This document shows, one piece after another, positions 17,040 through 52,584 of a stretch of 64,000 bases of DNA (its first letter is position 1; each line of letters opens with the position of its first letter). Under the pieces are notes generated by a model. It was not told the DNA's origin. It made no database searches and was given only the letters and a program-made list of their open reading frames with translations. The DNA lies in assembly GCA_045535455.1 (NCBI GenBank), contig JAZSLQ010000125.1, forward strand, positions 1,894 through 65,893, in the 5' to 3' direction. A program made the position numbers and the translations under genes. This stretch comes from Kiritimatiellia bacterium. GTDB lineage: Bacteria > Verrucomicrobiota > Kiritimatiellia > RFP12 > UBA1067.

Positions 17040-17218
17040 ACAGAGTCGAACAAATCATCGCATTTGTCGATAGGGAATCTCCGGGGGTGCTCGACAGTGT
17101 GGCGGAAGAAGATGGTATATCCAAGGAGGAGATAGTACGCAAGGTACTCGCTCTTTCTAATGGTCGCATGGTGTACACACACCAAGATCGGGATAGAGTC
17201 ACTACCGATGAATCATGA
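17036..17218 (+). CDS. small hypothetical protein (60 aa)
   Basis: Overlaps the RHH gene by 4 nt. No recognisable domain. Confidence 0.3.
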   Translation: MNRVEQIIAFVDRESPGVLDSVAEEDGISKEEIVRKVLALSNGRMVYTHQDRDRVTTDES

Positions 17219-18452
17219 CTTAAGAGTGAAACGGCGCAGGGGTTTTCCGACGGCATTGTTTGCCGCCTTGCTTTTCTCTGCCTGTTTTGGCGCGGAGATT
17301 ACGCAGCCGTCCTTTGGCAGCGACGGCATAGACCGTACTGACCCTAACTTCGTCACGGCGTCGTTACTTTGGATAGGGCCGGGCGAAGAGTTTTTTGGCT
17401 GTGCGGGGCATTCGAGCATCAGATTGGAGTGCCCGAAGTTCAACCTAGACTATTGTTTTTCATGTGAAAGCGAAAGTATTCGTGAAAACTTTGGCCGCTT
17501 TTTAATGGGTGGTCTGAAGACAGGAATGTTTGCAATTCCGACTAAAGAGTTTCTCAAGTTGTATGAAGACTTAGGACGGAGCGCGACGCAATACAAGTTG
17601 AATCTCCCGCCCGATGTGAAACAGCGGCTTTGGGAGATACTTGATAAACAGGTTGAGGATGGGCGTTGCCTGCCATACGACTATATTAAATACTGTTGCG
17701 TTCAGACGATGCTTCAGCCGTTGCTTAAAGCAATTCCACCCTATGAACTTAAGCCAGGTCCTTGGCCCGAAATCTATAAGTTGACGCGCCGTGAAGTGTT
17801 GGCGAATGATCTAGAATGGTGTCCGTGGACAAGATTCTTCCTTCACACGATTGCGGGTACGGAGGTGGATCGTGAGGTGTCTCCGTATAAGACAGTTATC
17901 CTATCCAGGGATTTCGTCAATCTTCTAAGAGATGCGACAATCAACGGGCAGCATATAATAGAAGGTGACGGGGAAGTCCTATTGCCTTTCCAGAAGCCAA
18001 AGAAGACGGCTATAGTAACGCCGGTCATGGCGGCGGCGTGTGTGCTTGTTGTGGCGTGTGTAAACTTGTTGTTGCGGACAAAGTGGATAGATTGGAGTTT
18101 CCTGATTTTCCAGTCGTTGCTTGGACTCTTAATCTCTCATCTTGTGTTAATCTCGCACTTGCCTGCAACTGACTGGAACTGGCTAATCGTGCCGTTCAAC
18201 ATCATTCCGCTTGTATTTTGGAAGTGGCGTCACAAGTGGGCTTTGTGGTTTGCAGGTCTGCTTGTAGCGTGGGATGCATTCATGATTTTCCATCCGCATC
18301 GCCTGACCGATCCTGCATATTTTGTATTGGTCGCCGCATATATCGTATTTTACATCAAGGTCTTTCTTGGCGGCCCCAAAATGTGTCAGGCGGTTTCAAA
18401 ATGGGCAGACAGTTTTTTGCCTAAGGCAGTGCAGTGGCTTAATGAGGAATAA
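17208..18452 (+). CDS. DUF4105-domain (Lnb N-terminal-like) protein with a C-terminal multi-TM region
   Basis: ASLLWIGPGEEFFGCAGHSSIRLECPKFNLDYCF matches the DUF4105 start (LL.cgPGde.ys.fGHsaiRv). At least four TM helices follow in the C-terminal third. Confidence 0.6.
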   Translation: MNHDLRVKRRRGFPTALFAALLFSACFGAEITQPSFGSDGIDRTDPNFVTASLLWIGPGEEFFGCAGHSSIRLECPKFNLDYCFSCESESIRENFGRFLMGGLKTGMFAIPTKEFLKLYEDLGRSATQYKLNLPPDVKQRLWEILDKQVEDGRCLPYDYIKYCCVQTMLQPLLKAIPPYELKPGPWPEIYKLTRREVLANDLEWCPWTRFFLHTIAGTEVDREVSPYKTVILSRDFVNLLRDATINGQHIIEGDGEVLLPFQKPKKTAIVTPVMAAACVLVVACVNLLLRTKWIDWSFLIFQSLLGLLISHLVLISHLPATDWNWLIVPFNIIPLVFWKWRHKWALWFAGLLVAWDAFMIFHPHRLTDPAYFVLVAAYIVFYIKVFLGGPKMCQAVSKWADSFLPKAVQWLNEE

Positions 18453-18486
18453 TCATTGAAACAACATGGGAACACAGGAAAAGAAC

Positions 18487-21400
18487 ATGAAAGAAAAAAC
18501 AATGAAAAAGATTACGATAATGGCGTTTCTGCTGGCGATACTCGCGCCTGTTATGCAGGTGTGGGCAGGAAGCGGCGGCTCTACGACATATTATGCTGCA
18601 TTGAAGGCGCAGGTGTCGTCCAATTCGTCTGGCATGGGTAAGGTCTATGCTGGAACGTCGAATTCAGCACCGTCGGCGAGTAGTTACAAAGCTGATTACT
18701 CGCAAAGCTCCAGTCAGAATTCTACGACGGAGAATGAAAAAAAGAATTTTTATGCTTTTGCGCAGGCGAATGATGGGTATGAGTTTGTCGGTTGGTCCAC
18801 CAGCAACAATGGCTCAACATCTTCATCTGCAAGTCCTTATACTGTTCAAGTGGCATGCACGTCCTCCACTGAATCCAGCCCTACGGTGACGACGGTTTAT
18901 GCAAATTTTAAGAAGAAGGTTCTTGCTGCGTTCAACATCACCTTTGAGACGAGTAGTGCGGGCAGTTATACTGTTGATGGCGCGGCACCGGCCAACAAGA
19001 CAGGATTGACGGAAGCGACTTCCATTACGTTGGCATCGTCCGATGACAAATTCTTAAACTGGGTTGTCAATGGTGCCGAGGTCACGACCAACCCCTATAC
19101 TGCAAGTTATACAGCGAACACGACTATCAGTGCGGTGTTCCTGACCGCAGACATGGTTACTTCTGTCACCACACTTAGCGACTTGACATCGGCACTGTCC
19201 AATGCTCAGTACAAGAAAGTCACCATTCCTTCAGGAACTACGATCCAGATTCCCAAGGGCTCGACGGTTACGGTTCCTTCTGGAAAGCAACTGGTGATGG
19301 ACGGAACGCTGATTGTCTTGGGGACGCTGTCGAACTCCGGTGCGATTTCTGGTAATGGAACGCTCTACAAGATTTCGTACAAGATTGATCAGGGCGATGT
19401 CATTACTGTTTACACGGCTGATGGCAAGGAGTGCGGTGCCATGACGTGTGCCTGCCAAGATTCCAAGATGCCGCGCTACTGCAAGACGACGGTTACGGCG
19501 AACACACCGACTGTCAGCGGAACAATTGGTTGCACGACAACGTGGGGCGTACTTCTTAACGGTACGACGGCATACGCAATCAGAAATCAGAGCCCGAAGG
19601 CGGTCAAGGTTAATGTTGATACGGCGAAGGATTCCAATGGAAAACAGAGCGTCGTCAACAAGATTACATCGGTTGTCGCAAATGGCAATGTGGATGCTTT
19701 GGATGCGAATGCCAACTATGTTCTCTTTGCTGATTGTAGCATGACGGGGCCGTTGGACAGCAGTAAACTTAGGAGCACGGCAACCGTAGATTGTGCAGGT
19801 AAAAAACTGTCTGCCGGTACCAATTCGCATTCGTCATTTGGCATTAGCGTGTTAAATGGTTCGTTTTCGGCTTCTGCTAGCCAGTGGCAGAACGCTCATG
19901 CTGCGTTCTTCAACATGTCCTCCGTGTCGCTTAGCAAAATCAAGGGCACGGTTTCTACCTATTACTTCTATGACTGTGGCACGTCGGCGTCGGCGTGTTC
20001 CCTTTCGTTCGCCTACTACAGTTCGACGCGCACTTCAGATTACCGAACTATCTATCTGTATAGCGGTTATTACAGCTATTCGTTCAACACAACAGACGAT
20101 TCTGGCAAATGCAATGTGTACGGTGGTTCGTTTACAAAAGATCCTTCAGCTTACATCCCGTCTACTTATGACGGAATTATCGACGCCAAGTACGATGGCA
20201 GCAAGTATTACGTCGTGGGGGCGGCACAGGTCGCTGAGACGCTGGCAACTATTGGCGATGCCAAGTATTCTTCTCTCGCAGATGCCGTGGAAGCAGCCAA
20301 TACCGGAGATGAAATTACGCTAAGCGCTGCAATAGACTTGACAGGGAAAACGATTACGATTCCATCTGGCAAGTCCATTACACTTACGCTTGAGAACCAT
20401 CAAATCACGGGCGGTAGAATTGTGAACTATGGAACTCTTATACTCACCGATTCCGCCACAGGGACAGGCACAACCAACGCCGATCCAAGCGGTGGCATCT
20501 TGAATAGCGATATAGATAACTATGGTACGCTTGATTTCGTTTTTGGTACCTACAATGGTGCAATATCTAATAAAGAGGGTACACTTACTACGCACAACGG
20601 CATCTTCAATGGTGCATTGGCAAAAGAAGGCGGCTCGGTCAATTTGCGGGGTGGACATTTTAAGCAGGATGTAACTTCATTTGTAACGTCTGACGCATTT
20701 ATCGTAATCCGAAAGAATAATCTTTATAGCGTTTGTGAACTTCCAGATGGGACGTTGCGCGACACGACAATCAATGGCGTTGCGGGGAGCGCCGCCACGC
20801 CCTATTCAGACGCCGATTACACGCTTATCGCCAATTGGTTCACTGGGACGAAATCTTTACGCACTGGCTACTCGGCGGAAACTTGGGAGCATCTTGCCGA
20901 ATTGCTGTGTTTCTATCAGGTGTTCAACAACAACGGACTTGATGCAACGCTCAAATTTGATCGTGATGTTGCCGCCAATACAATCACACTTCATGCGAGG
21001 ACGACGGCTGCAGCTTCTCGTGCAATTGCAAATGACCTTTCTGCAGATTCGCTCTATCGTGGATTGTCCGAAGTCTTGAATGGTGGAGGATATGCTTCTA
21101 AAACATACAAGGCGTTGTGGCAAGATGATATAAAAACTGTTGCATTGGCTGTTTCGGATTCAACTGTTGGTGCAAACGCAGGTACGGTTTGCACCGAGAT
21201 GATTGAGCTCTGGGAGGAGGTCCGTGCCTCTGACTACTCATCTACTGGGCATAAGTTGACGAATACAGTCCTTATTGTTGGTCAGAAGCGCTTTACCATT
21301 GGCGCTGGCAGCAATGTGGCGATGATTCGCCCCGATGTCGGCGCGGCGACGTTCTATGCGACACTTGACGCGGCGGTGGCGGCGGTCGTGGACGGCGGGA

Positions 21401-22737
21401 CTATCATGCTGGCTAATGATTGTGATAATAATGTGACTGTCGAAAAGGCTTGTACGATTGATACCAATGGATTCAAATTCACTGGTAAGATTGAGACCAC
21501 TGGAGGATATTCCATATCGGAATCTGACGGCGTTTATGTGGTCAAGGCCCCAGACCCCGCCGACTTGGTGAATGTCGAGAATGTCGTTTCGGATGTCGTT
21601 TCTGAAGAATGGCTGGAAGCGAACGAGATTTCGACCGAAGGCAAGACGACAGAAGAAATTCAGGCGGAGGTTCTGGAGAAGTTGAACGAAGAAGATACCA
21701 ACGGCAATGCCAAGTGGGAGAATCTTGTAATTGGCCAGAATGCCGATGAAAAGGCCGCTGTAACCGCTGCCAGCGGTGGTACCGAGACGACTGCCAATAT
21801 AGAGGTGTCCTTCGAAGTCCCGACTAACGCTGAGACGGGTGAGAAGATAGAAACTGGCTATACGGTCAAGTATGCGTTCGACAAGACCGACAGCACTGGG
21901 ACGCTTGAAGGCGAGGCACAAGACAACCCGACGATTGATCTCAAGGGTGTAAAGGAAAACGATCCGACTTACTTCACGATGCGCGCTGTGCTTGAGGCGA
22001 CTGATAACAGCGGAGTGACGGCGGAGGTGCCAGTCGAGAAGACCATTGGCGTCTTTAAGGTGGAGTCCGATGCGGCAGTTACGATTATTCCTGTGCCGTG
22101 GAAGTCGCTTGGCGACGAAGACATCAAGGCGACTGAGCTTGTCCATGCCGCGAGCCTCAGCGATGATGACGAGTTGATTGTCTATGGCGCTGATGGCAAA
22201 TCGCAGACTTGGATTGTGAAGAACGGCGAATGGACTGCTCCGGTTGCTGAATACACTATCGGTGACGATGTTTCCGAGCCGCAGCAAGAGGAACAGCAAG
22301 AGGCCGCTGAACTCTCGCGCGGGCAGGGCGCTATACTAAAGCGAAAGGACACAACCAAGGAGATCGTACTTATCGGACAGGCGGTCACGAGTGAGACGGT
22401 AGAGACGACAATTGCTGCTGCAGGCACAGAGCCGAGCTGGAATCTTGTCGCCTCGCCCAAGATGGAACAGGTTGCGGTTGATACCGTTGCAGGTGAAAAC
22501 ACGTCCGACGAGATTATCGTGCCGACAGCCGGTACGCCGAAGCATTATACCTACAAGGATAATGCGTGGGGTTATACTGGGAAGATCGGCGAAACAGAGG
22601 TGACATTGCCTGGTGGAGTGAAAACAACGGCTGTCCAGTTCGGACGCAAGACGGATGATACGAGCGTTCCCGCGGGTACGGGCTTCTGGTATTTGAACAA
22701 GGATTCCTCCAACAACGATAAGAAGATTACGTGGTAA
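18487..22737 (+). CDS. giant secreted surface protein 1 (about 1417 aa) with a right-handed beta-helix and a conserved C-terminal domain
   Basis: A signal peptide (MKEKTMKKITIMAFLLAILAPVMQVWA) and a Ser/Thr-rich region with a Listeria-Bacteroides-repeat-like block (YAFAQANDGYEFVGWS). Gly/Thr/Asn-rich beta-helix turns follow. The C-terminal 300 aa or so is paralogous to the C-terminus of the 23274-27098 protein. Confidence 0.7.
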   Translation: MKEKTMKKITIMAFLLAILAPVMQVWAGSGGSTTYYAALKAQVSSNSSGMGKVYAGTSNSAPSASSYKADYSQSSSQNSTTENEKKNFYAFAQANDGYEFVGWSTSNNGSTSSSASPYTVQVACTSSTESSPTVTTVYANFKKKVLAAFNITFETSSAGSYTVDGAAPANKTGLTEATSITLASSDDKFLNWVVNGAEVTTNPYTASYTANTTISAVFLTADMVTSVTTLSDLTSALSNAQYKKVTIPSGTTIQIPKGSTVTVPSGKQLVMDGTLIVLGTLSNSGAISGNGTLYKISYKIDQGDVITVYTADGKECGAMTCACQDSKMPRYCKTTVTANTPTVSGTIGCTTTWGVLLNGTTAYAIRNQSPKAVKVNVDTAKDSNGKQSVVNKITSVVANGNVDALDANANYVLFADCSMTGPLDSSKLRSTATVDCAGKKLSAGTNSHSSFGISVLNGSFSASASQWQNAHAAFFNMSSVSLSKIKGTVSTYYFYDCGTSASACSLSFAYYSSTRTSDYRTIYLYSGYYSYSFNTTDDSGKCNVYGGSFTKDPSAYIPSTYDGIIDAKYDGSKYYVVGAAQVAETLATIGDAKYSSLADAVEAANTGDEITLSAAIDLTGKTITIPSGKSITLTLENHQITGGRIVNYGTLILTDSATGTGTTNADPSGGILNSDIDNYGTLDFVFGTYNGAISNKEGTLTTHNGIFNGALAKEGGSVNLRGGHFKQDVTSFVTSDAFIVIRKNNLYSVCELPDGTLRDTTINGVAGSAATPYSDADYTLIANWFTGTKSLRTGYSAETWEHLAELLCFYQVFNNNGLDATLKFDRDVAANTITLHARTTAAASRAIANDLSADSLYRGLSEVLNGGGYASKTYKALWQDDIKTVALAVSDSTVGANAGTVCTEMIELWEEVRASDYSSTGHKLTNTVLIVGQKRFTIGAGSNVAMIRPDVGAATFYATLDAAVAAVVDGGTIMLANDCDNNVTVEKACTIDTNGFKFTGKIETTGGYSISESDGVYVVKAPDPADLVNVENVVSDVVSEEWLEANEISTEGKTTEEIQAEVLEKLNEEDTNGNAKWENLVIGQNADEKAAVTAASGGTETTANIEVSFEVPTNAETGEKIETGYTVKYAFDKTDSTGTLEGEAQDNPTIDLKGVKENDPTYFTMRAVLEATDNSGVTAEVPVEKTIGVFKVESDAAVTIIPVPWKSLGDEDIKATELVHAASLSDDDELIVYGADGKSQTWIVKNGEWTAPVAEYTIGDDVSEPQQEEQQEAAELSRGQGAILKRKDTTKEIVLIGQAVTSETVETTIAAAGTEPSWNLVASPKMEQVAVDTVAGENTSDEIIVPTAGTPKHYTYKDNAWGYTGKIGETEVTLPGGVKTTAVQFGRKTDDTSVPAGTGFWYLNKDSSNNDKKITW

Positions 22738-22744
22738 CCGCTTT

Positions 22745-23254
22745 ATGAAGAAAATTCTCGTAAAAAGTTGTCTGACCGTCGCGCTTGCGCTTTGCGCGCA
22801 AGCAACGATGGCGGATTATCTATATTTTCTCGTCGGTGACGATTCCGGAAATTCGCCTACATATAACGATGACCCTGTTGTCTACAGCTATGCAACAGTT
22901 AAGATGACGGGTGCTGGTGACAGCAGTGGTTATCTGGAACTCTATGCTGGTGGCGCTACTGAGTCGTCCGGCATTGCTATGATGTCCGGAAGCACCGCCC
23001 CAGCATACGCCAAGTTGCCGGACAATTATAAAAATGCTTACAGCACGTTCCTAGTCGAGCTGTGGAATGAAGATGCTAACCGTGTGGCGTGGCAGAGTTA
23101 TAACTTGGCTGGTGTAGGCGGGAATATAGTAGGCAGCAACGCGCAGGGATCTCAGCTTAATGTGACTACTGTTATACCTGAGCCGACTGGCGGGATGCTT
23201 ATGCTTCTCGGCATGGCGGTTTTGGCCATGAGACGCAAGGCAAGAATGTTTTAA
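22745..23254 (+). CDS. small PEP-CTERM sorting-domain protein (169 aa)
   Basis: Signal peptide present. The C-terminus VIPEPTGGMLMLLGMAVLAMRRKARMF has the PEP motif, a TM segment and RRK. Paralog of the 27133-27633 protein. Confidence 0.85.
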   Translation: MKKILVKSCLTVALALCAQATMADYLYFLVGDDSGNSPTYNDDPVVYSYATVKMTGAGDSSGYLELYAGGATESSGIAMMSGSTAPAYAKLPDNYKNAYSTFLVELWNEDANRVAWQSYNLAGVGGNIVGSNAQGSQLNVTTVIPEPTGGMLMLLGMAVLAMRRKARMF

Positions 23255-23273: not shown

Positions 23274-26200
23274 ATGAAAAAAATGAAGATGCTGATCGCA
23301 GGGTTTGTGCTGGCGCTCGCTGGCATGGCAACTGCGGCTATGGATACGGTGCTGACCTTTTCAACGGTTGGCCCAGACAGGTATGCCGACGGCGAAGACG
23401 TCGTTGACGGCGAGTGTTATGCGCTCGTCTGGACGTCTGATGTGGCTGGCTTTACCTTGTCAGACGACGGCACGGCTACTGGCGGGAAGGTTGTTCTTGT
23501 CGCACCTGTCGCCGAAGGCAGGCGCTGCCCGCCGGTTAAGCTGAACATCAAGGCGTCCGTCGCCCCTCAGTACGAGGGTGGCGTCTGGGGAGTGTACCTT
23601 CTCGACACGCGTGAATCTCCCGAAGGCGAGCGTGTAATTAGCGGAGTCAAGCTCATTCCCGATGCGACGGTTGATGTCGCGAGCGAGGGCTATCTTGTCC
23701 ATACGACCATGAAGTCGAAGGCGCTGCTCGGCGCTTCCGCCGGCGTGGTTGATGCCGAGAGCCTGGTCGCTGCGGTTGCCGCTGGTGGTGAGGTAACGGT
23801 CGCGGCCGATATCACGCTCAATGACGAGCTGGTTGTCGAAAAGGAAGTGACGCTTAATCTTGGAGAGTACAAGATCACTGCGGCGAACGGCAAGAACGCG
23901 ATTCAGGTCGCGGCCGGCGGAAACCTCACGATCAATGCGGAGTCGACGGGCGGTGTTTCGGCGTCCAACGCGCTGGCTGTCTATGCCGACTACGAGCTTT
24001 CGCCCGGCGTGAAGACGATCACGATCAATGGTGGCGTATTCGACGGTGCGCTGCAGTTCAACAAGTATCCGCTCCACACCTCTGAAGTGCAGTCCGGCGA
24101 GGCGGCTGTTCCGACGACGGTTGTTGTCGGTGGCGGTACGTTCAAAGGCCGCGTGAGCATTTACCACTGCCCGTTCACTGTGAATGGCGGTACGTTTGAG
24201 CAGGGCCTTGACACGTCTGACGGTAGCGTTACGGTCTATGCCAACTACAAGTGTCCGGTCACGTTCAACGGCGGTAGCTTCAAGGTCAGGCCGACGCCTG
24301 CAGGTTCGCGCGTTGTCGTCAATGGTGGCGTGTACTACGAGGGTGGTTACTTCAAGGTTGGCGACACAGCCGACTGCCAGGCGACGCGCAATGGCACATA
24401 CTATGCTTCGCTCGCCGAGGCGTTCCAGGACATCGGGCCTGGCACTGTGATCACCGTTCTTGGCGGTGATGAGGCGTCTATCTCTGTCGAGCTTGAACCC
24501 GGCCAGTCGCTGACGGTCCCGTCTACGTTCGCGGGTGCGATAGCGGGCAAGGGTGGTGCTGAACTTGTTGTCACGTATGTGGATGGCACAGCCATCTACA
24601 TGGTAAAGGCGGAGGGCGTGGCGCGTATTGGTGCGCAGTACTACGCCACGCTTCAGGCGGCGTTTGACGCAAGCAAGACCAATGACGTCATTACGCTTCT
24701 TGCCGATGACACGCTTGCGTTCACCTCGCTTGACCGTGCAATCACGCTTGACCTTAACGGCCACAACGTGACGGTGACGGGCGGTGCGGCGGACCTCTCC
24801 AATGGTGCGCTCACCATTGTCGGTAGTGGCCACATGACGGGCTTCGTCGAGCCTTCCGCTGGAAAGGTGAACCTTGTCCTCAAGGGCGGTACATACGGGT
24901 TCGATCCGTCTAAGTACGCTCCGTACGTCATTGAGGCGCTTCCGAACGAGCAGGATCCGGTAGACTGGAGCAATGATCGTCACTATGTGTTCAAGGATTA
25001 TGCGCTTGGCGTCTATGGCGGTTTCCCTTATTGGGCACCAGAAAAGGGCGTGTGGACGGTTGTTCCCGTGCCGAAGGCTTACGTGTCGGCCTATCCTACG
25101 AAGGAAGTCGGCATTGGCGACCCGCTCGACGCCGCTTATTCGTTCGGTGCGTTCAACGCCAACAATGGCGGTGCCAGCTATTGTTCTGACCGCGAAGTTG
25201 CCGACAAGGTTATTACAGGCGACGGAATGCTCAACCTCAACGCACTGACAGATCCGGAGGAGATCACCCGCGCTCTGGCGGTGCTGACCGAGGCGACGCC
25301 GTTCCTCGATTGGCACGCAGACTTCGCGGTGTCGTTCGACAAGCCAATCACGGCTGGTTCGCTCACGCTCGCCGGACAGTACAATGGTTGGTCGAGCAGC
25401 TGGGTATCGTATCCTGCGCCGGCTAATGTTGGAGCGAATGTGGTTCGCCGGCTCCTTGCGGACGAGGGCGGCGCTAGACCCTCCGACTGGCCGTATCAGC
25501 ATATCTGCACTAAGGTGAAAGACTTCAACTGCGGTGCGCGCATGGACGATAGCTCCATCATCGGGACGACGATGAAGGTCCAGCTCAGGCTCTACAAGCC
25601 GGACGGCGACGAGGGCACTGGTTCGCCGTCGATTCTCATCTGCGAGTACAAGTACACGTTCGGCGGCAAGGCGGCACGGATCGAGGACACATTCTACGAT
25701 TCGATTGACGAGGCCATTGCCGAAGTTCAGTCCAACGACGTCGTGGTCGTCCTCAACGACTACACTGGCGCGGTCGATATCAACAACTGCGACAAGCCGT
25801 TCACGGTCAACAGGAATGGCTTCGTGCTTGGAGTGACCGAAACGAACAACATCAATAAGGCAAAGGGCACCGATTGGCACTTCGACAGAATGAGCAACGG
25901 CAGCTGGAGCTACTACAACAAGCCGGCGCCTCCGTCCGAGGATGTGGCTGTCGTCATGGTCGAAGTCGTCGACGATGCGGGTGAGTCTATGTCACTCTCG
26001 GCGCTCACTCCTGATGCGGAGTGGCTGGACAAGAAGACGCAGGAAGGCGAGACGGCCGAGCAGGCTCTTGCCAAGGTCGAGGAGAACGGCAACCAGGCAT
26101 GGCAGAACTACGTGATCGGACAAGATCCGAGCGCGGCAGTCCGTGTCAACACCGCGCAGGCGGATATTGATAAAACACCTGTCGATAACACGCTTACCGA

Positions 26201-27098
26201 AAAGGTGAATGTGCCTACCAATTCCGGCTTCAAGGTGTCGTACGCCATCGACAAGATTGAAGCAGACGGAACGGTTAAAGAGGGTACTCCTCAGGCTTCG
26301 GCAGAAAACTTTACTGTCGATCTTGAGAATGCGACAGACAACGAATCCGGAGTCGCCTACTTCAAGATGACTGCGATCATCGAGGCCGAAGACGGCACTG
26401 GTGCGAAGACCAAGGTTACGTCCGAGAACACCCTCGGCGTCCTGAAGGTTGATGCAACCACTAAGAACACGCCGGTTGCAGTTCCGTGGTCGTCTCTCGC
26501 CGACGACAAGGACATTACCGTCGATCAGCTTGTTCGCACGGCGACGCTCACTCCTGGCGACACGATGACGGCCTACGACAACGAAACGGGCAAGTATAAT
26601 GCCTGGGAGCTGCAGGATAACGGCACGTGGAAGACGGTGCAGTCCGCTGGCGGAGCGGAAACGCAAGATGCTTCTGAGTTTTCGGTTCCTCGCGGCGCGG
26701 CCGTGTGGGTGACGCGTCAGGATCCCACTCAGCCGCTTTACCTTGTAGGCGAGGTGGCGGAGAAGGCGGCCGAGACGCAACTTGAGCCAGCTCCTTCCGA
26801 AGAGAAGAAGTCATGGAATCTCGTTGCGTCTCCTTCGGTAGAGCCTGCCAAAGTTGAAGACATTCTTGCCGGCAACGAGGACTTCGATGTCATCATGGTT
26901 CCGACCGACGCAGCCCCTAAGGTCTACATCTACCGCGATGGCAAGTGGGGCTACGAGACCACCGAAGAGGTTATCAGGGGGGGCCAAGTGGTTGGTGTCA
27001 GGTCAGTGTTCAAGACGGATGACACCGAGATTCCCGCAGGTGTCGGCTTCTGGTACCTCAATGGAAGTACCGATGGCAACAAGACTGTTGAATGGTAA
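23274..27098 (+). CDS. giant secreted surface protein 2 (1274 aa) with a beta-helix and the same conserved C-terminal domain
   Basis: Signal peptide present. Beta-helix repeats such as GGVFDGALQFNKYPLHT and GGTFKGRVSIYHCPF. The C-terminal blocks SWNLVASP and GFWYLN are shared with giant protein 1. Confidence 0.7.
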   Translation: MKKMKMLIAGFVLALAGMATAAMDTVLTFSTVGPDRYADGEDVVDGECYALVWTSDVAGFTLSDDGTATGGKVVLVAPVAEGRRCPPVKLNIKASVAPQYEGGVWGVYLLDTRESPEGERVISGVKLIPDATVDVASEGYLVHTTMKSKALLGASAGVVDAESLVAAVAAGGEVTVAADITLNDELVVEKEVTLNLGEYKITAANGKNAIQVAAGGNLTINAESTGGVSASNALAVYADYELSPGVKTITINGGVFDGALQFNKYPLHTSEVQSGEAAVPTTVVVGGGTFKGRVSIYHCPFTVNGGTFEQGLDTSDGSVTVYANYKCPVTFNGGSFKVRPTPAGSRVVVNGGVYYEGGYFKVGDTADCQATRNGTYYASLAEAFQDIGPGTVITVLGGDEASISVELEPGQSLTVPSTFAGAIAGKGGAELVVTYVDGTAIYMVKAEGVARIGAQYYATLQAAFDASKTNDVITLLADDTLAFTSLDRAITLDLNGHNVTVTGGAADLSNGALTIVGSGHMTGFVEPSAGKVNLVLKGGTYGFDPSKYAPYVIEALPNEQDPVDWSNDRHYVFKDYALGVYGGFPYWAPEKGVWTVVPVPKAYVSAYPTKEVGIGDPLDAAYSFGAFNANNGGASYCSDREVADKVITGDGMLNLNALTDPEEITRALAVLTEATPFLDWHADFAVSFDKPITAGSLTLAGQYNGWSSSWVSYPAPANVGANVVRRLLADEGGARPSDWPYQHICTKVKDFNCGARMDDSSIIGTTMKVQLRLYKPDGDEGTGSPSILICEYKYTFGGKAARIEDTFYDSIDEAIAEVQSNDVVVVLNDYTGAVDINNCDKPFTVNRNGFVLGVTETNNINKAKGTDWHFDRMSNGSWSYYNKPAPPSEDVAVVMVEVVDDAGESMSLSALTPDAEWLDKKTQEGETAEQALAKVEENGNQAWQNYVIGQDPSAAVRVNTAQADIDKTPVDNTLTEKVNVPTNSGFKVSYAIDKIEADGTVKEGTPQASAENFTVDLENATDNESGVAYFKMTAIIEAEDGTGAKTKVTSENTLGVLKVDATTKNTPVAVPWSSLADDKDITVDQLVRTATLTPGDTMTAYDNETGKYNAWELQDNGTWKTVQSAGGAETQDASEFSVPRGAAVWVTRQDPTQPLYLVGEVAEKAAETQLEPAPSEEKKSWNLVASPSVEPAKVEDILAGNEDFDVIMVPTDAAPKVYIYRDGKWGYETTEEVIRGGQVVGVRSVFKTDDTEIPAGVGFWYLNGSTDGNKTVEW

Positions 27099-27132: not shown

Positions 27133-27633
27133 ATGAAATCGGTCAAACTTATCATTGCTGCAGCTGCCGTCGCAATTGCGACGACAGCTATGGCGGAGCC
27201 CGACAGCATACTCTACTGGATGGTAGACAAGCCGACATACGAAGATTCGGCCGTGGCTTTCGACCATGTGAAGATTAAGGCGGTTGACGGTGGAACCGGA
27301 AGCTACCTCTATATGTTCAACCAGGGAGCGAGCACGGGATACGATGTGGCCTTCGCGAAGGAGTCGGGCGACACCACTGGCGGCCTCTTCTCGGGGCTGT
27401 TCGACGGCAACGTGGATTACTTCCTCATCGAGCTGTTCGATGACTCGGATTCTCGAGTTGCCTGGCAGCGCGTCAGCTACCAGATGGCCTTTGACAACGG
27501 CAGCATATCGTCACCGTTGGCGGCTGGTGGCGCCACCGTGTATACCATAAGCCAGGTCGTGCCTGAGCCGACGAGCGGCATTCTTCTGCTGCTTGGTTTC
27601 GCCGGACTCGCCCTCCGTCGTAAAAAAGCATAA
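27133..27633 (+). CDS. small PEP-CTERM sorting-domain protein (166 aa), paralog of the 22745-23254 protein
   Basis: The C-terminus VVPEPTSGILLLLGFAGLALRRKKA carries the signal. The blocks LIELFDDSDSRVAWQRVSY and LVELWNEDANRVAWQSY are shared between the two proteins. Confidence 0.85.
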   Translation: MKSVKLIIAAAAVAIATTAMAEPDSILYWMVDKPTYEDSAVAFDHVKIKAVDGGTGSYLYMFNQGASTGYDVAFAKESGDTTGGLFSGLFDGNVDYFLIELFDDSDSRVAWQRVSYQMAFDNGSISSPLAAGGATVYTISQVVPEPTSGILLLLGFAGLALRRKKA

Positions 27634-27657: not shown

Positions 27658-28401
27658 ATGAAGAAGACAGTATTCTCCGCGCTTGCGGCAATTCTTGTCG
27701 GAACTGCTTTCGCGGCAGCCAACGACAAGCTCGTCATGTTCTCGACCAAGGGACCCGATACCTACGCAGACGGCACCCAGGTTCTCGACAAGGAGTGCTA
27801 CGCACTTGTCTGGGACAAGGATTCCGAGCCGTTCAGCGTCGCGGCCGACGGCTCTACGACCGGCGGCGACATCGTGCTTTTCGCGCCATTTGCCGAAAAG
27901 GGACGTTGCCCGAAGGTGCTCTTCGAGGTGGACGCGGCGCTTGTCGAGAGCAAGTACACCAAGGGGGGCTCCTGGAAGGTCTATCTGCTTGACACGCGTC
28001 GCTTCGGCGACACGGTGACGCTCGCTCCGCTTGTGAACGGAAAGCCGTCGCTCATCAATGCGGCCGGTCTTGTCGGCAATGCGGCAATCAGCGTGGCCGC
28101 TGGCGCTCCAAACTCCGTGAATGTGGCCGCTGGCACTACGGCGGCCACGGCGACGGCTCTTCCGGCAGGCGATGGAAACGTCACGCCGAAGATCTCCGAC
28201 ATCAATGTCAGCGGCGATCTTGTCTACGTGACGGTTGAGAACACCCGCCCGTATCTCGCCTATGATCTGACGGAGGGCGCCAAGCCCGGTGAAGTGACGG
28301 AGCGCGTCAACAATCCGCGTACGGGCGGGGATGACGGCAAGGTCGTACTCGTCGCCCCGAAGAAGGACGGCGGCGCGTTCTTCCGCGTAAACCGCAAGTA
28401 A
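27658..28401 (+). CDS. secreted protein that is a stand-alone paralog of the N-terminal domain of giant protein 2
   Basis: VMFSTKGPDTYADGTQVLDKECYALVWDKD...GRCPKV...VYLLDTR aligns with residues 25-110 of giant protein 2. Confidence 0.6.
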   Translation: MKKTVFSALAAILVGTAFAAANDKLVMFSTKGPDTYADGTQVLDKECYALVWDKDSEPFSVAADGSTTGGDIVLFAPFAEKGRCPKVLFEVDAALVESKYTKGGSWKVYLLDTRRFGDTVTLAPLVNGKPSLINAAGLVGNAAISVAAGAPNSVNVAAGTTAATATALPAGDGNVTPKISDINVSGDLVYVTVENTRPYLAYDLTEGAKPGEVTERVNNPRTGGDDGKVVLVAPKKDGGAFFRVNRK

Positions 28402-28409
28402 GAAGCGGA

Positions 28410-30668
28410 GTGCAAGACACAAAGGCACTTGACGGTGGACTGGCCGCGCGGGATTTTATTCTCGCATCAGCGGCCGGTCTGCTTTCTTTTGCCGCGTTCT
28501 ACTGGCTCTCAATTCCGGGGCTCGACCCTTCGCAGTGGAGCGAGGTCGCCGTTGCCGCACGGCTTCGCCCGCCGCAGGCGATGTTGCCCGGGCTTTGGCG
28601 TGTGCTGACGTGCGGTTTCTTTTCCGCCGTCGGCATACCATTTGCGGTAAAGGCCCTTTCGCTGCTTGGCGCAGCCGTGGGCGGCATCTGCGTCGCCCTC
28701 GTCTATCTTGTGGTTCGCCAGTCGTTTCTGTTCCTGGCGCGCCTTGACGAGAAACATGCCGTCTGGACTAATTTCATCTCGCCGTTCTTTGCGATGGTCG
28801 CAGCGCTTTTTGTCGCCGTGGCCGACCCGATATGGCGAATAAGCCAGACCTTTTCGCCTGAACAGCTTCATTTGCTGTTGTTGCTTTTGGCGATATACGC
28901 CTGGCTCAGGTGGATTACGCTCGGCAGCAACTGGCGTCTTTATTCCCTGGTGGCGCTGCTGGGGGTGGCGTCCGCCGAAACGCCATTCGCGATTATCCTG
29001 ACTCCGCTGCTCCTTGCTGGTTACTGCCGCTTTCAGCGCTGCGTGGAGAACGGCATGGCCTTCAATCACAAGCTGGTGTACGCTCTGGGCCCCCTGCCCC
29101 GCTGGCGAATGTTCTTTATCTTCATCGGTTCGCTTGGCTTGGCCATCCGGATGAATGTCAAGATCTTCGCTGCGCTTGGCGGCGTAGCAGCCAACGGCTG
29201 GCGAATGGGCGATCTATACTTCCGGTACGGCATTGACTACTGGCACGTGCTGACGGGCTCTTCGAATCTTGCCGGTTGGGCGCTGGGCCTTGGCTTCGGG
29301 CTGTTTCCGCTTGTCGTGACGATGATGCTCCTGCCCCGTTCGATAAGAGACACCCGTCCGCTGGCGTTCCACCGCGGAGTCCTTCTCTTTTTTGTTTGCG
29401 CGCTCGCGGTCATGCAGTGCGGCGCATTCCCGGCGGCCCGGTTCTGGACGCTGGCGACGGAGACGGCTTCCGTCTCGTCCGGCTTTTTCCTGTCTTTCTA
29501 CGTGGTCTGCTCGGCCGTGACCATCGCCATGGTCGGGGCCACCTTCGCATTTGAATGCCAGCGGGTCTATCTATCCGTCGACGAGCCAAGGCCCGGCCTT
29601 GCGCTGCGCGGCCTTGTACCCGCAGTTGCGGTCGCGCTTTTTGCGCTCGCGGCCGCCCATGCTTCGCGGACGGTCGAGGCCGAGATGCAGCGGATTGTCC
29701 GTGACGCGCTGGAAGAGACGGTGCGCGAATGCGGCGATGCGAAGTGGATCTTCACGGACGGACGCCTCGACGACGGGCTTTCGCTTGTTGCCGCGGAGTC
29801 TGGACGGGAAATCGTGCCTCTCAACATGATGTCCGGCGCAACTCGCTGGGAACAGTCCTTGCGGGAGCGTCATTTCCCCGAGGGTAGCGCAGATCGCGAC
29901 AATGCGTCCATCGGCATACCGGCGCTTCTCAGGGTCTGGGCGGGCGAAAAGCCTGGCGGGATGGATGAGGCGGCGGTGCAGCTTGGCTTTGAATTCTGGA
30001 AGCGCGAGCATAAGTCGCCGCCAAAGGCGTCTGGCTTCGTTGCGCGTACAAGCGGCATGAGCGACGAAGAGGCGGCGAGAGGAATCGAGGCGGCCAAAGC
30101 GCTATCCGCGCGAATTTTTGAGCTTGAGGGCAAGAAGGAACGCGCCCATCCGTCTCCTGCGCTCGCGGACGCGCTTTCATTCGTTTCGTGGCGTCTTTCG
30201 CGCCTGGCTCGGTTTAGGAATGACGACGATACCGCTGACAGGCTTGACCGCGGCAACGCGGCACTCAAGAGGACGTTGTCCGTAGTAGATCATGAACGCC
30301 AGCGCACATTCATGCGCCTGACGCCGTTGGAAGGGTTGCGCCTCGCCTTGGGCCGTACCGACTTCGTCGAGGCGCGTCGCCATGCGTCGGCCGTCTTGAA
30401 AAGTGACGAGGATCATCCAGAAGCCAACTTCGGCATGGGCATGAGCTATCTTGTGGAGGGGCGTTTGAACGATGCGGAGCTTTACCTTAGGCGGTGTCTG
30501 AAGAAGTGTCCCAACGAGCCGGCGGTCCTAAACAACCTTTCGATAATTTGTCGCAAGACGAATCGCTACGAAGAGGCGGAGGAACTTGCGCGGAAGGCGC
30601 TCAAGGTGTTTCCCGATTCGCCAGAGGTCAAACAGACGCTGCAGGACGCAATAAACAGGGCTAAGTAG
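28410..30668 (+). CDS. polytopic membrane protein (10 or more TM helices) with a C-terminal TPR domain, possibly a glycosyltransferase or O-antigen-ligase-like (DUF2723/PMT-like) protein
   Basis: GTG start. The N-terminal 420 aa is hydrophobic and multi-helical. C-terminal TPRs include ANFGMGMSYLVEGRLNDAELYLRRCLKKCPNE. No exosortase CSG motif was seen. Confidence 0.45.
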   Translation: MQDTKALDGGLAARDFILASAAGLLSFAAFYWLSIPGLDPSQWSEVAVAARLRPPQAMLPGLWRVLTCGFFSAVGIPFAVKALSLLGAAVGGICVALVYLVVRQSFLFLARLDEKHAVWTNFISPFFAMVAALFVAVADPIWRISQTFSPEQLHLLLLLLAIYAWLRWITLGSNWRLYSLVALLGVASAETPFAIILTPLLLAGYCRFQRCVENGMAFNHKLVYALGPLPRWRMFFIFIGSLGLAIRMNVKIFAALGGVAANGWRMGDLYFRYGIDYWHVLTGSSNLAGWALGLGFGLFPLVVTMMLLPRSIRDTRPLAFHRGVLLFFVCALAVMQCGAFPAARFWTLATETASVSSGFFLSFYVVCSAVTIAMVGATFAFECQRVYLSVDEPRPGLALRGLVPAVAVALFALAAAHASRTVEAEMQRIVRDALEETVRECGDAKWIFTDGRLDDGLSLVAAESGREIVPLNMMSGATRWEQSLRERHFPEGSADRDNASIGIPALLRVWAGEKPGGMDEAAVQLGFEFWKREHKSPPKASGFVARTSGMSDEEAARGIEAAKALSARIFELEGKKERAHPSPALADALSFVSWRLSRLARFRNDDDTADRLDRGNAALKRTLSVVDHERQRTFMRLTPLEGLRLALGRTDFVEARRHASAVLKSDEDHPEANFGMGMSYLVEGRLNDAELYLRRCLKKCPNEPAVLNNLSIICRKTNRYEEAEELARKALKVFPDSPEVKQTLQDAINRAK

Positions 30669-51350: not shown

Positions 51351-52484
51351 CTATGCTTCCCGTTTCCCTTCCTTTGCCGACTGGCGGCGGTATTCGCGCA
51401 TGGTCATGCCGGTTCGCTTCAGGAAGAACCGCTTTGCGTATCCGTCCGATTCGTATCCGCTGCGCTCCACCACCATCGCGATGGGAAGTGTGCTGCTCGA
51501 CAGGAGTTCGCGCATTTTCTGTAGACGTATTTCATGGATTTCGTCTAGGATTGAACGGCCCGTTTCCTTTCTGAACCGGCTTGTCGCAAGCGCGCGCGAG
51601 CAGTTCATTTCGGCGGCGATGGCGTCAATGGAAAGTCCTGGCTCGCAGGCGTGGCGCCTGATGAACTCGCGCGCACGGCGCACACGTGCGCTGACTCCCG
51701 GAGTTGTGTCCGTGGAGCCGCGACGCACGATGCGCAGCGGGCCATAGTATTCGGTGCGTACGCTTGTGCCGTTGTCGATTTCCTCCGCGAGCATCTGGGC
51801 CATGCGCCATCCGGCGCCCTCGAAGTCGGGTTCGACGCTCGTGATGCCGGGTTTCACGGCCTCGCAGTACGCCTCGTCGTTGTCGATTCCGACGATGCGC
51901 ACTTCATCGGGCACTGAAAGCCCCACCTTTGTCGCTGCGTTATATGCCTCCATGGCGCAATAGTCGTTCGCACCGAGTATGCCACACGGTTTAGGCAAAT
52001 CCCTTAGTGTCTCTTCGAGAGACGCGAGCGCCAACGTGACAAGCGTCTGCCCGGCAGCGGCAGTATCGGACTTGAAGCGTTTAAAGCGCGCCTTGTCCCA
52101 GTGAATGCCCTTGCCTGTGCCGAGGTAGGCGTAGGATTTGCATTTGCACCTCAGGAGGTCCTTGACGGCCAATGCCGCGGAAGCGGCGGAATCGTGCAGA
52201 AGGCACGGATGTTCCTTCGACGGCATCTCGGGGTTCTGGTCGAGGTATATGGTCGGGATTCCCCTGAAGACGTTGTCGGGCGCGCTCGCCGTGCGCATTG
52301 CGCGATCCACAAGACAGCCGATGGGAGCCCATGTTTTCAGTGCTCGGCGGATATCCGAGGTGGTCGCGAATCGCTCCACGACCTGCACGAACCAGTCGCG
52401 CTCCTGTGCAAAGCGGTGGACGCCCGAGAGCTTCTGTAGCCAGCTCTTACGTGTTGTGGACTGGAAGAAAAGTACTGTTTTCAT
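51351..52484 (-). CDS. AraC/XylR-family transcriptional regulator with an N-terminal periplasmic-binding-protein-like sugar-sensing domain
   Basis: The C-terminal AraC HTH pair (GLSIDAIAAEMNCSRALATSRFRKETG...MREYR) and an N-terminal LacI/PBP-like fold. Divergent from the DUF5107/TPR gene. Confidence 0.8.
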   Translation of the reverse strand: MKTVLFFQSTTRKSWLQKLSGVHRFAQERDWFVQVVERFATTSDIRRALKTWAPIGCLVDRAMRTASAPDNVFRGIPTIYLDQNPEMPSKEHPCLLHDSAASAALAVKDLLRCKCKSYAYLGTGKGIHWDKARFKRFKSDTAAAGQTLVTLALASLEETLRDLPKPCGILGANDYCAMEAYNAATKVGLSVPDEVRIVGIDNDEAYCEAVKPGITSVEPDFEGAGWRMAQMLAEEIDNGTSVRTEYYGPLRIVRRGSTDTTPGVSARVRRAREFIRRHACEPGLSIDAIAAEMNCSRALATSRFRKETGRSILDEIHEIRLQKMRELLSSSTLPIAMVVERSGYESDGYAKRFFLKRTGMTMREYRRQSAKEGKREA

Positions 52485-52508
52485 TGTGAGTATAGCATAT
52501 CATAATCC

Positions 52509-52538
52509 TGTCCGATTGACTATGTTTTATTTGTCCTA
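52509..52538 (+). promoter_or_regulatory. conserved 30-bp cis-element TGTCCGATTGACTATGTTTTATTTGTCCTA, a candidate AraC/XylR operator
   Basis: A near-identical copy is at 58569-58598. It contains TGTCC half-sites 22 bp apart and sits about 30 bp upstream of the -10 element. Confidence 0.5.
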
Positions 52539-52564
52539 TGGGATAACACATCGAGCAGGCGTCT

Positions 52565-52573
52565 TGGTACAAT
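52565..52573 (+). promoter_or_regulatory. extended -10 promoter TGGTACAAT, near-leaderless
   Basis: Located 12 nt upstream of the ATG at 52585. Confidence 0.4.
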
Positions 52574-52584
52574 TATGGCCAGAT

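Follow-up and report, generated by a model that had tools for sequence, protein, structure and literature searches.

A C-terminal domain of large exported Kiritimatiellae proteins, encoded next to small PEP-CTERM proteins, suggests a new means of surface-protein attachment

The window analyzed here is a stretch of 64,000 nucleotides from a Kiritimatiellia bacterium (assembly GCA_045535455.1, contig JAZSLQ010000125.1). It encodes two large proteins with signal peptides, A and B, together with two small PEP-CTERM proteins (partners 1 and 2) and two further proteins that we call X and T (Table 1). The gene of partner 1 starts 7 nt past the stop codon of A, and the gene of partner 2 starts 34 nt past the stop codon of B. 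The leader of A is MKKITIMAFLLAILAPVMQVWA, and a Pfam/NCBIfam scan found weak Flg_new_2 and List_Bact_rpt matches near its N-terminus. An earlier note on this DNA had placed A at 18487-22737; the end was right, and position 18487 is the second in-frame ATG of an open reading frame that opens at 18466. An arrangement orthologous to that of B is present in another locus, L001. A promoter/terminator scan of the 16.5-31 kb region gave no excess over shuffled sequence (11 vs 9.0; 13 vs 14.8).

Table 1. Features of the locus (positions in the window)
Feature	Position	Strand	Description	Basis
Large protein A	18466..22737	+	1423 aa; Sec signal peptide, fibre-like passenger, C-terminal domain	ORF and translation
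A, N-terminal sub-domain	21688..22041	+	Ig/FN3-like, ~118 aa	
A, C-terminal core sub-domain	22042..22734	+	231 aa, TIGVFKV to GFWYLN..KITW; homologous to B core	
Small partner 1	22745..23254	+	169 aa; signal peptide, ~120-aa body, IPEP + TM helix + RRK	
Large protein B	23274..27098	+	1274 aa; signal peptide, N-terminal X domain, beta-helix-like motifs in passenger, C-terminal domain	
B, N-terminal X domain	23337..23650	+	~105 aa; common to B and the 247-aa X protein	Alignment
B, N-terminal sub-domain	26073..26429	+	Ig/FN3-like	
B, C-terminal core sub-domain	26430..27095	+	222 aa, TLGVLKV to GFWYLN..TVEW	
Small partner 2	27133..27633	+	166 aa; signal peptide, body, VPEP + TM helix + RRKK	
Cassette protein X	27658..28401	+	247 aa; signal peptide, X domain, ~70-aa C-terminal domain ending ..GGAFFRVNRK	
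Cassette protein T	28410..30668	+	752 aa; 11 TM-like segments (aa 17-415), conserved soluble region, TPRs (aa 644-745)	Translation, hydropathy

The C-terminal regions of A and B, which the earlier note had described as a common domain, are indeed homologous. BLASTP aligned them with E=3e-55 and 31% identity over 647 columns (A 826-1423, B 683-1274), and the similarity peaks over the last ~340 residues. The sequence blocks named before were all found: the pairs WENLVIGQ/WQNYVIGQ, YFTMRA/YFKMTA, and VPWKSL/VPWSSL, and SWNLVASP and GFWYLN in both proteins. The proposed terminal (T/K)W held in part, since both proteins end in tryptophan but the preceding residue is threonine in A (..KITW) and glutamate in B (..TVEW). 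A family profile places the conserved domain at residues 1075-1423 of A (nt 21688-22734) and 934-1274 of B (nt 26073-27095, E=1e-159), close to the spans proposed earlier (21600-22737 and about 25990-27098). The A/B likeness runs ~250 aa further upstream, and that stretch lies outside the widely conserved domain.

This shared region is a previously undescribed C-terminal module, which consists of a spacer resembling Ig/FN3 domains, followed by an autonomous all-beta core of ~225 aa. The structure model of the B core has a pLDDT of 89.3, and a structure search with it found no fold neighbor in the PDB. The strands in the structure models are short (3-12 residues) and contain many charged residues. 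The likeness of the N-terminal sub-domain to fibronectin type III and Ig-like spacers is generic, does not cover the conserved core, and is not accompanied by a match to the fn3 or Big models of Pfam. The domain matched no Pfam or NCBIfam model at E<=0.1, and 11 family members had none at E<=1; a sequence search of the PDB was also empty. The domain was thus assigned to no known secretion or anchor family. In particular, the models of the T9SS C-terminal domain (CTD; type A TIGR04183, type B TIGR04131), the autotransporter beta-barrel (PF03797), and the PEP-CTERM signal were unmatched, which agrees with the earlier view that the domain resembles none of the three. Outer-membrane barrels were absent among its structural neighbors. 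Its terminal aromatic residue is the sole likeness to the beta-signal of outer-membrane proteins. We found no paper describing the domain and none linking Kiritimatiellae with PEP-CTERM.

The domain family is large and is not confined to this genome. A profile search returned 1,269 representative clusters (50% identity) at E<=1e-3 and 1,082 at E<=1e-10. We collected 47 domain loci from gut and rumen metagenome-assembled genomes (MAGs) of Kiritimatiellae type, representing roughly 40 species. The MAGs are labeled Kiritimatiellae, 'Verrucomicrobia', or Lentisphaerae, with the exception of a 2-kb contig labeled 'Gemmiger', probably a contaminant from binning. The domain is always C-terminal: its end lies no more than 20 aa from the C-terminus of the host in 154 of 156 matches, and the last residue is tryptophan in 72 of 82. 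The hosts are diverse exported, fibre-like proteins of 151-6,935 aa, and a signal-peptide-like leader is present in 93 of the 117 full-length ones. Their passengers are mostly without annotation and show sporadic adhesin-type modules (Flg_new, GLUG, discoidin, Big_2, MBG). No catalytic domain was found by a Pfam scan in the passengers of 29 full-length hosts. The core sub-domain also stands alone, and 23 of 24 such stand-alone proteins have a signal peptide; the core-profile search behind this count returned short proteins only, owing to its word prefilter. Two proteins with a pseudopilin or TetR N-terminus joined to half a domain (P0003 and P0010), on contigs of ~1.2 kb, were taken as assembly chimeras.

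The C-termini of A (..GFWYLNKDSSNNDKKITW) and B (..GFWYLNGSTDGNKTVEW) have no PEP motif, hydrophobic helix, or RR cluster, and neither protein carries its own anchor in the form of a PEP motif, TM helix, or lipobox. The small partners do carry the signal, and their tails are VIPEPTGGMLMLLGMAVLAMRRKARMF and VVPEPTSGILLLLGFAGLALRRKKA. Partner 2 scored above the cutoffs of both PF07589 (23.6 bits, cutoff 20.7) and TIGR02595 (25.9 bits, cutoff 16). Partner 1 was above the cutoff for TIGR02595 (17.1 bits) and below it for PF07589 (17.2 bits), and a body-only HMM assigned it to the small-partner family with E=1e-36. The nearest NCBI relative of partner 2, at 98% identity, is named 'PEP-CTERM sorting domain-containing protein [Kiritimatiellae bacterium]'. 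The partners are small (155-250 aa) and fast-evolving, and HMM comparison groups their bodies, stripped of signal peptide and tail, in a single homologous family. The conserved motifs are few (LYWMV, YLxLY, FxxEL, W), and a conserved hydrophobic strand, (S/D)xLYWMV, comes right after the signal peptide. Homology between partner and core was considered and rejected (hhalign probability 0.2%).

The domain genes are linked to this one PEP-CTERM family, as the co-occurrence suspected in the earlier note would have it. By strict detection, a PEP-CTERM ORF starts -41 to +79 nt from the stop codon of 36 of the 52 domain ORFs. When lenient or HMM detection and fusions are included, about 47 of 52 domain genes have an adjacent partner, 44 of them downstream and 3 upstream. 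Three to five domain genes (L025, L029, and L030, perhaps also L027 and L041) have no adjacent partner. Conversely, all 40 ORFs with a signal peptide and a PEP-CTERM signal in the 710-kb sample adjoin a domain gene, a statistic that is local and not genome-wide because the loci were gathered around domain genes. The stand-alone core proteins keep the pairing, which indicates that it involves the core itself and that the core has its own role. One protein, P0011, contains a partner and a short domain protein within one reading frame, a Rosetta-stone-like arrangement.

The identity matrices of domains and partners are correlated (r=0.81; null 0.00 +/- 0.04). Such a mirror-tree correlation can come from co-inheritance alone. 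The A-type domains of the window and L001 are 81% identical, and their partners are 30% identical. The much faster evolution of the partners would be unusual for a tight specific interface, unless the contacts are confined to the few conserved motifs.

The X and T proteins belong to a wider cassette. The X-domain alignment reads FSTxGPDRYADGxxVxDGECYALVW ... CPxV ... WxVYLLDTR, and the HMM of family X also matches B. The X protein has no Pfam or NCBIfam match, and its family occurs in 23 loci and in 4 in-frame fusions, always inside the cassette. The T family is found in at least 16 loci, directly after the small PEP-CTERM gene, and two loci (L031 and L037) contain a minimal four-gene cassette, X-C-S-T. 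The T protein matches TPR models alone. T has no clear match to exosortases or GT-C glycosyltransferases: no exosortase model matches it, its first loop lacks an invariant acidic residue, and a weak TMEM260-like match appeared in only 1 of 15 members (E=0.029). Membership in PrsT was rejected, with a score of 45.7 bits (cutoff 312) that is confined to the TPR part. No exosortase was found among 18 other window ORFs that were scanned with Pfam, nor was one identified in the loci with their +/-10 kb surroundings.

From the position of the domain, the diversity of its hosts, and the gene linkage, we infer a role in secretion or attachment, as was suggested before. In our main reading, with a probability of roughly 0.5, the domain serves to dock large surface proteins onto a mini-anchor sorted by exosortase. 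The large protein would be exported by Sec, and its C-terminal core would then bind the body of the small PEP-CTERM protein encoded directly downstream. The PEP-CTERM helix would hold the mini-protein in the membrane until the exosortase pathway processes and sorts it. Lacking its own anchor, the large protein would be kept in trans at the cell surface or within the matrix, and its variable N-terminal passenger would face outward. The ~250-aa X protein and the 11-TM/TPR protein probably also take part in assembly.

T9SS CTDs are Ig-like beta-sandwiches of about 70-100 residues, and their partner genes typically lie beside the cargo gene. The Kiritimatiellae domain has neither this size nor this fold: it is 2-4 times larger and shows no likeness in sequence. 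The closest analogue of the domain with its partner is the T9SS type B CTD with a PorP/SprF partner. In PMC9143113, type B CTD proteins are described as binding cognate PorP/SprF-like partners for surface anchorage, for example SprB-SprF of Flavobacterium johnsoniae and PG1035-PorP of Porphyromonas gingivalis. In both systems, adhesins that are exported by Sec and often giant carry a conserved domain at their very C-terminus, and non-covalent anchorage to a dedicated partner is proposed. They differ in that the partner here is a small PEP-CTERM protein instead of an outer-membrane beta-barrel, the binding here is predicted, and the hosts are Kiritimatiellae of the PVC group and not Bacteroidota.

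In diderm bacteria, the PEP-CTERM/exosortase (EpsH) system is predicted to deliver proteins to the cell surface or the matrix (Haft et al. 2006, PMC1569441). The small partners resemble its substrates in having a bona fide signal with PEP motif, TM helix, and basic cluster. The large proteins, however, lack the signal, and sorting would act on them in trans through the mini-protein. The gene arrangement is also different. According to Haft et al. (2006, PMC1569441), PEP-CTERM genes mostly form operons of a single gene and have long upstream regions, whereas those described here lie -41 to +79 nt behind another gene. The docking we propose is similar in concept to the cohesin-dockerin system of cellulosomes, where diverse exported proteins carry a conserved terminal module that docks to a partner module anchored on the cell. 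Dockerins are Ca-binding helical modules of ~70 aa. The domain has no homology or fold likeness to this system (neither cohesin nor dockerin appeared among its Pfam matches or structural neighbors), and each cargo gene has one small partner instead of a multi-cohesin scaffold.

A different and unlikely reading is that the domain serves, like the T9SS CTD, as an export or recognition signal for an outer-membrane translocation route, with the PEP-CTERM and 11-TM/TPR proteins as secretion cofactors and not an anchor. Its strict place at the extreme C-terminus and the conserved terminal tryptophan, despite very different host lengths, would fit such a signal, and the Sec leaders imply that a second step is needed across the outer membrane. 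At 225-340 aa, with a compact and confident fold, the domain is nevertheless much larger than known C-terminal secretion signals. The cassette does include a conserved polytopic membrane protein, and a T2SS-F gene lies three genes downstream in the window. This T2SS-F neighbor is not conserved at other loci, though, and no secretin or Omp85-type gene recurs near the domain loci. The many exported core-only proteins without cargo would be pointless for a pure export tag, and these copies favor attachment or assembly instead.

Still less likely, the core would be a lectin-like module for glycan binding, either self-anchoring to exopolysaccharide or LPS of the same cell or, as the adhesive end, attaching to host or dietary glycans; the PEP-CTERM protein would then be a co-expressed matrix protein that is not its direct ligand. 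No CBM or lectin family was significant against the core by sequence or structure. One would not expect a tip that binds ligands to be the most conserved part, to lie invariably at the C-terminus, and to pair one-to-one with a partner gene, and the variable N-terminal passengers fit a conserved end that is proximal to the cell. Least likely is a subunit-subunit assembly domain of a pilus- or S-layer-like fibre or lattice that the small protein joins by strand complementation as a minor or base subunit: the stand-alone core proteins, the hydrophobic (S/D)xLYWMV strand, and the resemblance of the X-C-S-T cassette to a small assembly operon would suit it, but the core folds confidently alone (pLDDT 89) with no sign of a missing strand, and we found no likeness to chaperone-usher, type V pilin, or S-layer folds and no chaperone or usher gene.

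Animal guts harbor abundant Kiritimatiellae, which degrade polysaccharides and are mostly uncultured. The pairing of the domain with its PEP-CTERM partner suggests that these bacteria have a new means of holding big surface proteins on the cell. If docking onto the mini-anchor is correct, a C-terminal family of more than 1,000 clusters, paired gene-for-gene with a PEP-CTERM mini-protein, would provide the first indication that other proteins can use exosortase substrates as adaptors. The PEP-CTERM pathway, which is poorly understood, could also be approached through a tractable assay of two proteins, the domain and its partner. Annotation gains four new families (domain, partner body, X protein, and 11-TM/TPR protein), and the domain offers a rule for recognizing surface proteins of these genomes that are now labeled hypothetical in databases.

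More tentatively, the whole cassette might be a surface-display system of gut and rumen Kiritimatiellae based on exosortase sorting in trans. The mini PEP-CTERM protein would be the dedicated anchor or adaptor for the novel-fold docking domain, which is carried by hundreds of large fibre proteins and by cargo-less mini-proteins. X would help the assembly, and so would the 11-TM/TPR protein as a new membrane protein unrelated to known exosortases. The in-frame fusions, which have a second signal peptide after a PEP-CTERM signal, would be polyproteins that exosortase and signal peptidase separate.

The two large exported proteins of the window, A and B, carry a common C-terminal region, as the earlier note had proposed from block-by-block similarity. 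BLASTP bore this out far beyond chance (E=3e-55, 31% identity over 647 columns), the similarity being densest over the last ~340 residues, and the five motif blocks quoted in that note were all found in both proteins. Two details needed correction. The final W is present in both proteins, but it is preceded by T in A and by E in B, which makes the proposed ending (T/K)W slightly inexact; the proposed start of A, 18487, is the second in-frame Met of an ORF that begins at 18466. The G+C content is 0.49 across large gene A (18000-22000) versus about 0.58-0.62 in most of the window, which would fit a hypervariable surface gene that was acquired recently or has a biased composition (S/T/N/K-rich).

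Features of the cassette in the window and in-frame fusions of the partner in related loci
Feature	Sequence	Coordinates	Strand	Description
Large protein A	window	18466-22737	+	ORF, 1423 aa
Small PEP-CTERM partner 1	window	22745-23254		directly after A
Large protein B	window	23274-27098	+	ORF, 1274 aa
Small PEP-CTERM partner 2	window	27133-27633		directly after B
Family X	window	27658-28401		247 aa: signal peptide, ~105-aa domain, ~70-aa C-terminal domain
Family T	window	28410-30668		752 aa: 11 TM-like segments (aa 17-415), conserved soluble region, C-terminal TPRs
Partner fusion	L005	10850-12241		in-frame
Partner fusion	L011	734-2062		in-frame
Partner fusion	L012	11027-12295		in-frame
Partner fusion	L013	4644-5912		in-frame
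Partner fusion	L049	3169-4677		in-frame; database protein P0011

The domain region of A and B had no match in Pfam-A (2025) or NCBIfam 20.0, 11 family members had none in Pfam-A or NCBIfam at E<=1, and PDB sequences gave none with a single sequence or a profile. There is no recognisable fold relative; HMM and fold ruled out a PEP-CTERM signal, a T9SS CTD, an autotransporter barrel and a dockerin. A word-indexed search of 5.8 billion clusters returned only 11 domain relatives. The profile built from them was compared with every one of 1.84 billion representatives (50% identity) and recovered 1,269 proteins at E<=1e-3, of which 1,082 reached E<=1e-10 and 326 reached E<=1e-30. When one genome per GTDB species was scanned, 47 domain loci emerged, nearly all in MAGs that carry the label Kiritimatiellae/Kiritimatiellia or in older bins named 'Verrucomicrobia' or 'Lentisphaerae', with rumen, ruminant gut, horse faeces and one 'Hadza' (presumably human gut) as labelled sources. 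The new-domain interpretation thus survives both of its own refutation tests, since neither a known secretion or anchor family nor confinement to one genome was found. In the literature searched, no paper connects this clade with PEP-CTERM or describes the domain. The domain is a new family, widespread in one clade, within a conserved cassette of three to four genes that includes PEP-CTERM mini-proteins.

In 154 of the best 156 matches, no more than 20 residues separate the end of the domain from the host C-terminus, and in 65 there are none. Where the domain extends to the host end, 72 of 82 finish on W. The hosts are 151-6,935 aa long (median 1,257), and 93 of the 117 full-length ones have a Sec-type leader, as do A and B. 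In 29 hosts scanned with Pfam, the N-terminal passengers were mostly without a match and none contained a catalytic domain. Scattered matches were to adhesin or fibre modules (Flg_new, Flg_new_2, GLUG, F5/8-type C, Big_2, MBG, Fn3_assoc, CHB_HEX_C_1, M26 N-terminal region). Two further large exported-looking window proteins are without the domain: a 1329-aa DUF5107 and TPR protein (52138-56127) and a 551-aa double LamG (Laminin_G_3) protein (60441-62096).

The gene neighbourhood is the strongest clue to the role of the domain. The arrangement of a large gene followed by a small PEP-CTERM gene is repeated in L001, a related metagenomic contig. Co-occurrence with such small paralogs, raised in the earlier note, was followed through 52 domain-bearing ORFs from the window and 48 loci. 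A strict PEP-CTERM ORF (155-223 aa) starts -41 to +79 nt from the stop codon in 36 of the 52, and about 47 of 52 have an adjacent partner when lenient or HMM detection, three upstream cases and four in-frame fusions are added. No partner was found in L025, L029 and L030, whose domains also have no terminal W, beside the leading member of the tandem pair of large genes in L005, or beside a 95-aa fragment. All 40 ORFs with a signal peptide and PEP-CTERM in 710 kb lie beside a domain gene, a local statistic because the loci were chosen around domain genes. An HMM from the bodies only, with signal peptide and PEP-CTERM tail removed, grouped the partners as one family, whose members share the skeleton LYWMV ... 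YLxLY ... sFxxEL ... W ... VPEP. This family had no detectable relationship to PDB sequences, and no ancestry shared with the core, the last ~225 aa of the domain, was detectable (hhalign probability 0.2%). One window partner protein is 98% identical to an NCBI protein of a Kiritimatiellae MAG, which identifies the source of the window as a Kiritimatiellae bacterium of the gut type.

Pairwise identities of domains and adjacent partners are correlated (r=0.81, permutation null 0.00 +/- 0.04), so that domain-partner pairs diverge and duplicate as units. The partners evolve much faster: the A-type pair of the window and L001 has 30% identity in the partner versus 81% in the domain, a hint that the partner is an exposed protein under diversifying selection. 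The in-frame fusion ORFs contain the whole PEP-CTERM protein (signal peptide, body, PEP, TM helix, RR cluster) and run without a stop into a second signal-peptide-like stretch, which leads into a family-X protein or a short domain protein. This suggests polyprotein-like ORFs or recurrent stop-codon loss between tightly packed genes. The fusion locus L011, a 2-kb contig (CAVFWY010000279.1, labelled Gemmiger sp.) in a Firmicutes bin with the end of a domain gene and a partner-X fusion, most likely derives from a Kiritimatiellae genome and contaminates that bin.

It is established that this conserved module, always C-terminal, sits on diverse exported fibre-like proteins without a membrane anchor of their own, that its core can exist alone, and that it is matched almost one-to-one by small PEP-CTERM proteins of a dedicated family. 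Docking in trans is the simplest mechanism, and we give it a probability of about 0.5. The core would dock onto the partner, whose PEP-CTERM helix would tether it to the membrane before sorting by the exosortase pathway (Haft et al., 2006, PMC1569441). In this way the partner would attach the large protein, whose variable passenger would be distal. That the two proteins bind, that they lie at the surface and that an exosortase takes part are inferences. The nearest known parallel in logic is the T9SS type B CTD, for which anchoring of SprB and PG1035 through cognate PorP/SprF-like proteins that it binds has been proposed (PMC9143113). The Kiritimatiellae domain, however, has no homology to it and differs in partner type and phylum. 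On this reading the domain would belong with C-terminal surface-anchoring domains that have a cognate partner.

The domain splits into two sub-domains, a possibly Ig/FN3-like spacer preceding the core. Several loci encode proteins of 245-310 aa made up of a signal peptide and the last ~225 aa alone (profile positions ~107-338), and the same layout is found in about 25 database proteins. These cargo-less exported copies weaken the reading of the domain as a pure export signal, which we consider unlikely. The conserved residues are mainly aromatic or polar (VPW, D44, W59, W67, RG, R96, WN, P158, W173-x-Y, PAGTGFWY-x-N). A lectin-like binder of self or host glycan would agree with such an aromatic-rich surface, but similarity to a CBM or lectin was not detected, and this role is less probable still. 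A fibre or lattice assembly domain is the most doubtful of these alternatives. Two database proteins on ~1.2-kb contigs have a foreign N-terminus fused to the second half of the domain, a prepilin N-methyl pseudopilin in P0003 and TetR in P0010; both junctions lie at or close to an ATLT(P/E)GDT motif. They are probably metagenome assembly chimeras, and a near-identical spot twice is odd.

All-against-all clustering of the locus ORFs yielded two further cassette families, X and T. The window order is C-S-C-S-X-T, where C is the domain gene and S the partner, and a minimal cassette of X, short domain protein, partner and T occurs in L031 and L037. In 23 loci X either directly precedes the domain gene or directly follows the partner; with four fusions in addition, the family recurs in at least 27 cassettes. 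The 247-aa window member has no Pfam or NCBIfam match. Its ~105-aa domain (FSTxGPDRYADGxxVxDGECYALVW...WxVYLLDTR) also forms the N-terminus of B (23337-23650), and its C-terminal domain has the pattern ..VYVTV..PYLxYxL..LVAPxKxGGAFFRVxR. T directly follows the partner gene in at least 16 loci. Its soluble region has invariant E440, D450, G451 and D454 and near-invariant C441. Matches to Pfam, NCBIfam or PDB entries are confined to its TPR part, apart from a weak TMEM260-like match of the membrane part in 1 of 15 members. No exosortase model matches T, and PrsT scores 45.7 bits against a cutoff of 312, in the TPR part only. T could be a dedicated processing or assembly enzyme.

No exosortase was found among the window ORFs scanned. 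The rest of the window is ordinary chromosomal DNA (RNase HII, DHPS, YkuD, Lnb-like acyltransferase, PGDH, T2SS-F, SNF2 helicase, uronate catabolism and others). At 17160-18452, directly upstream of the cassette, lies a homologue of Lnb-like lipoprotein N-acyltransferases (Lnb_N E=5e-7; NF051878 71.6 bits, far below the cutoff of 550). This Lnb-like family (405-434 aa) precedes the cassette in four loci, for example at 876-2180 in L005.
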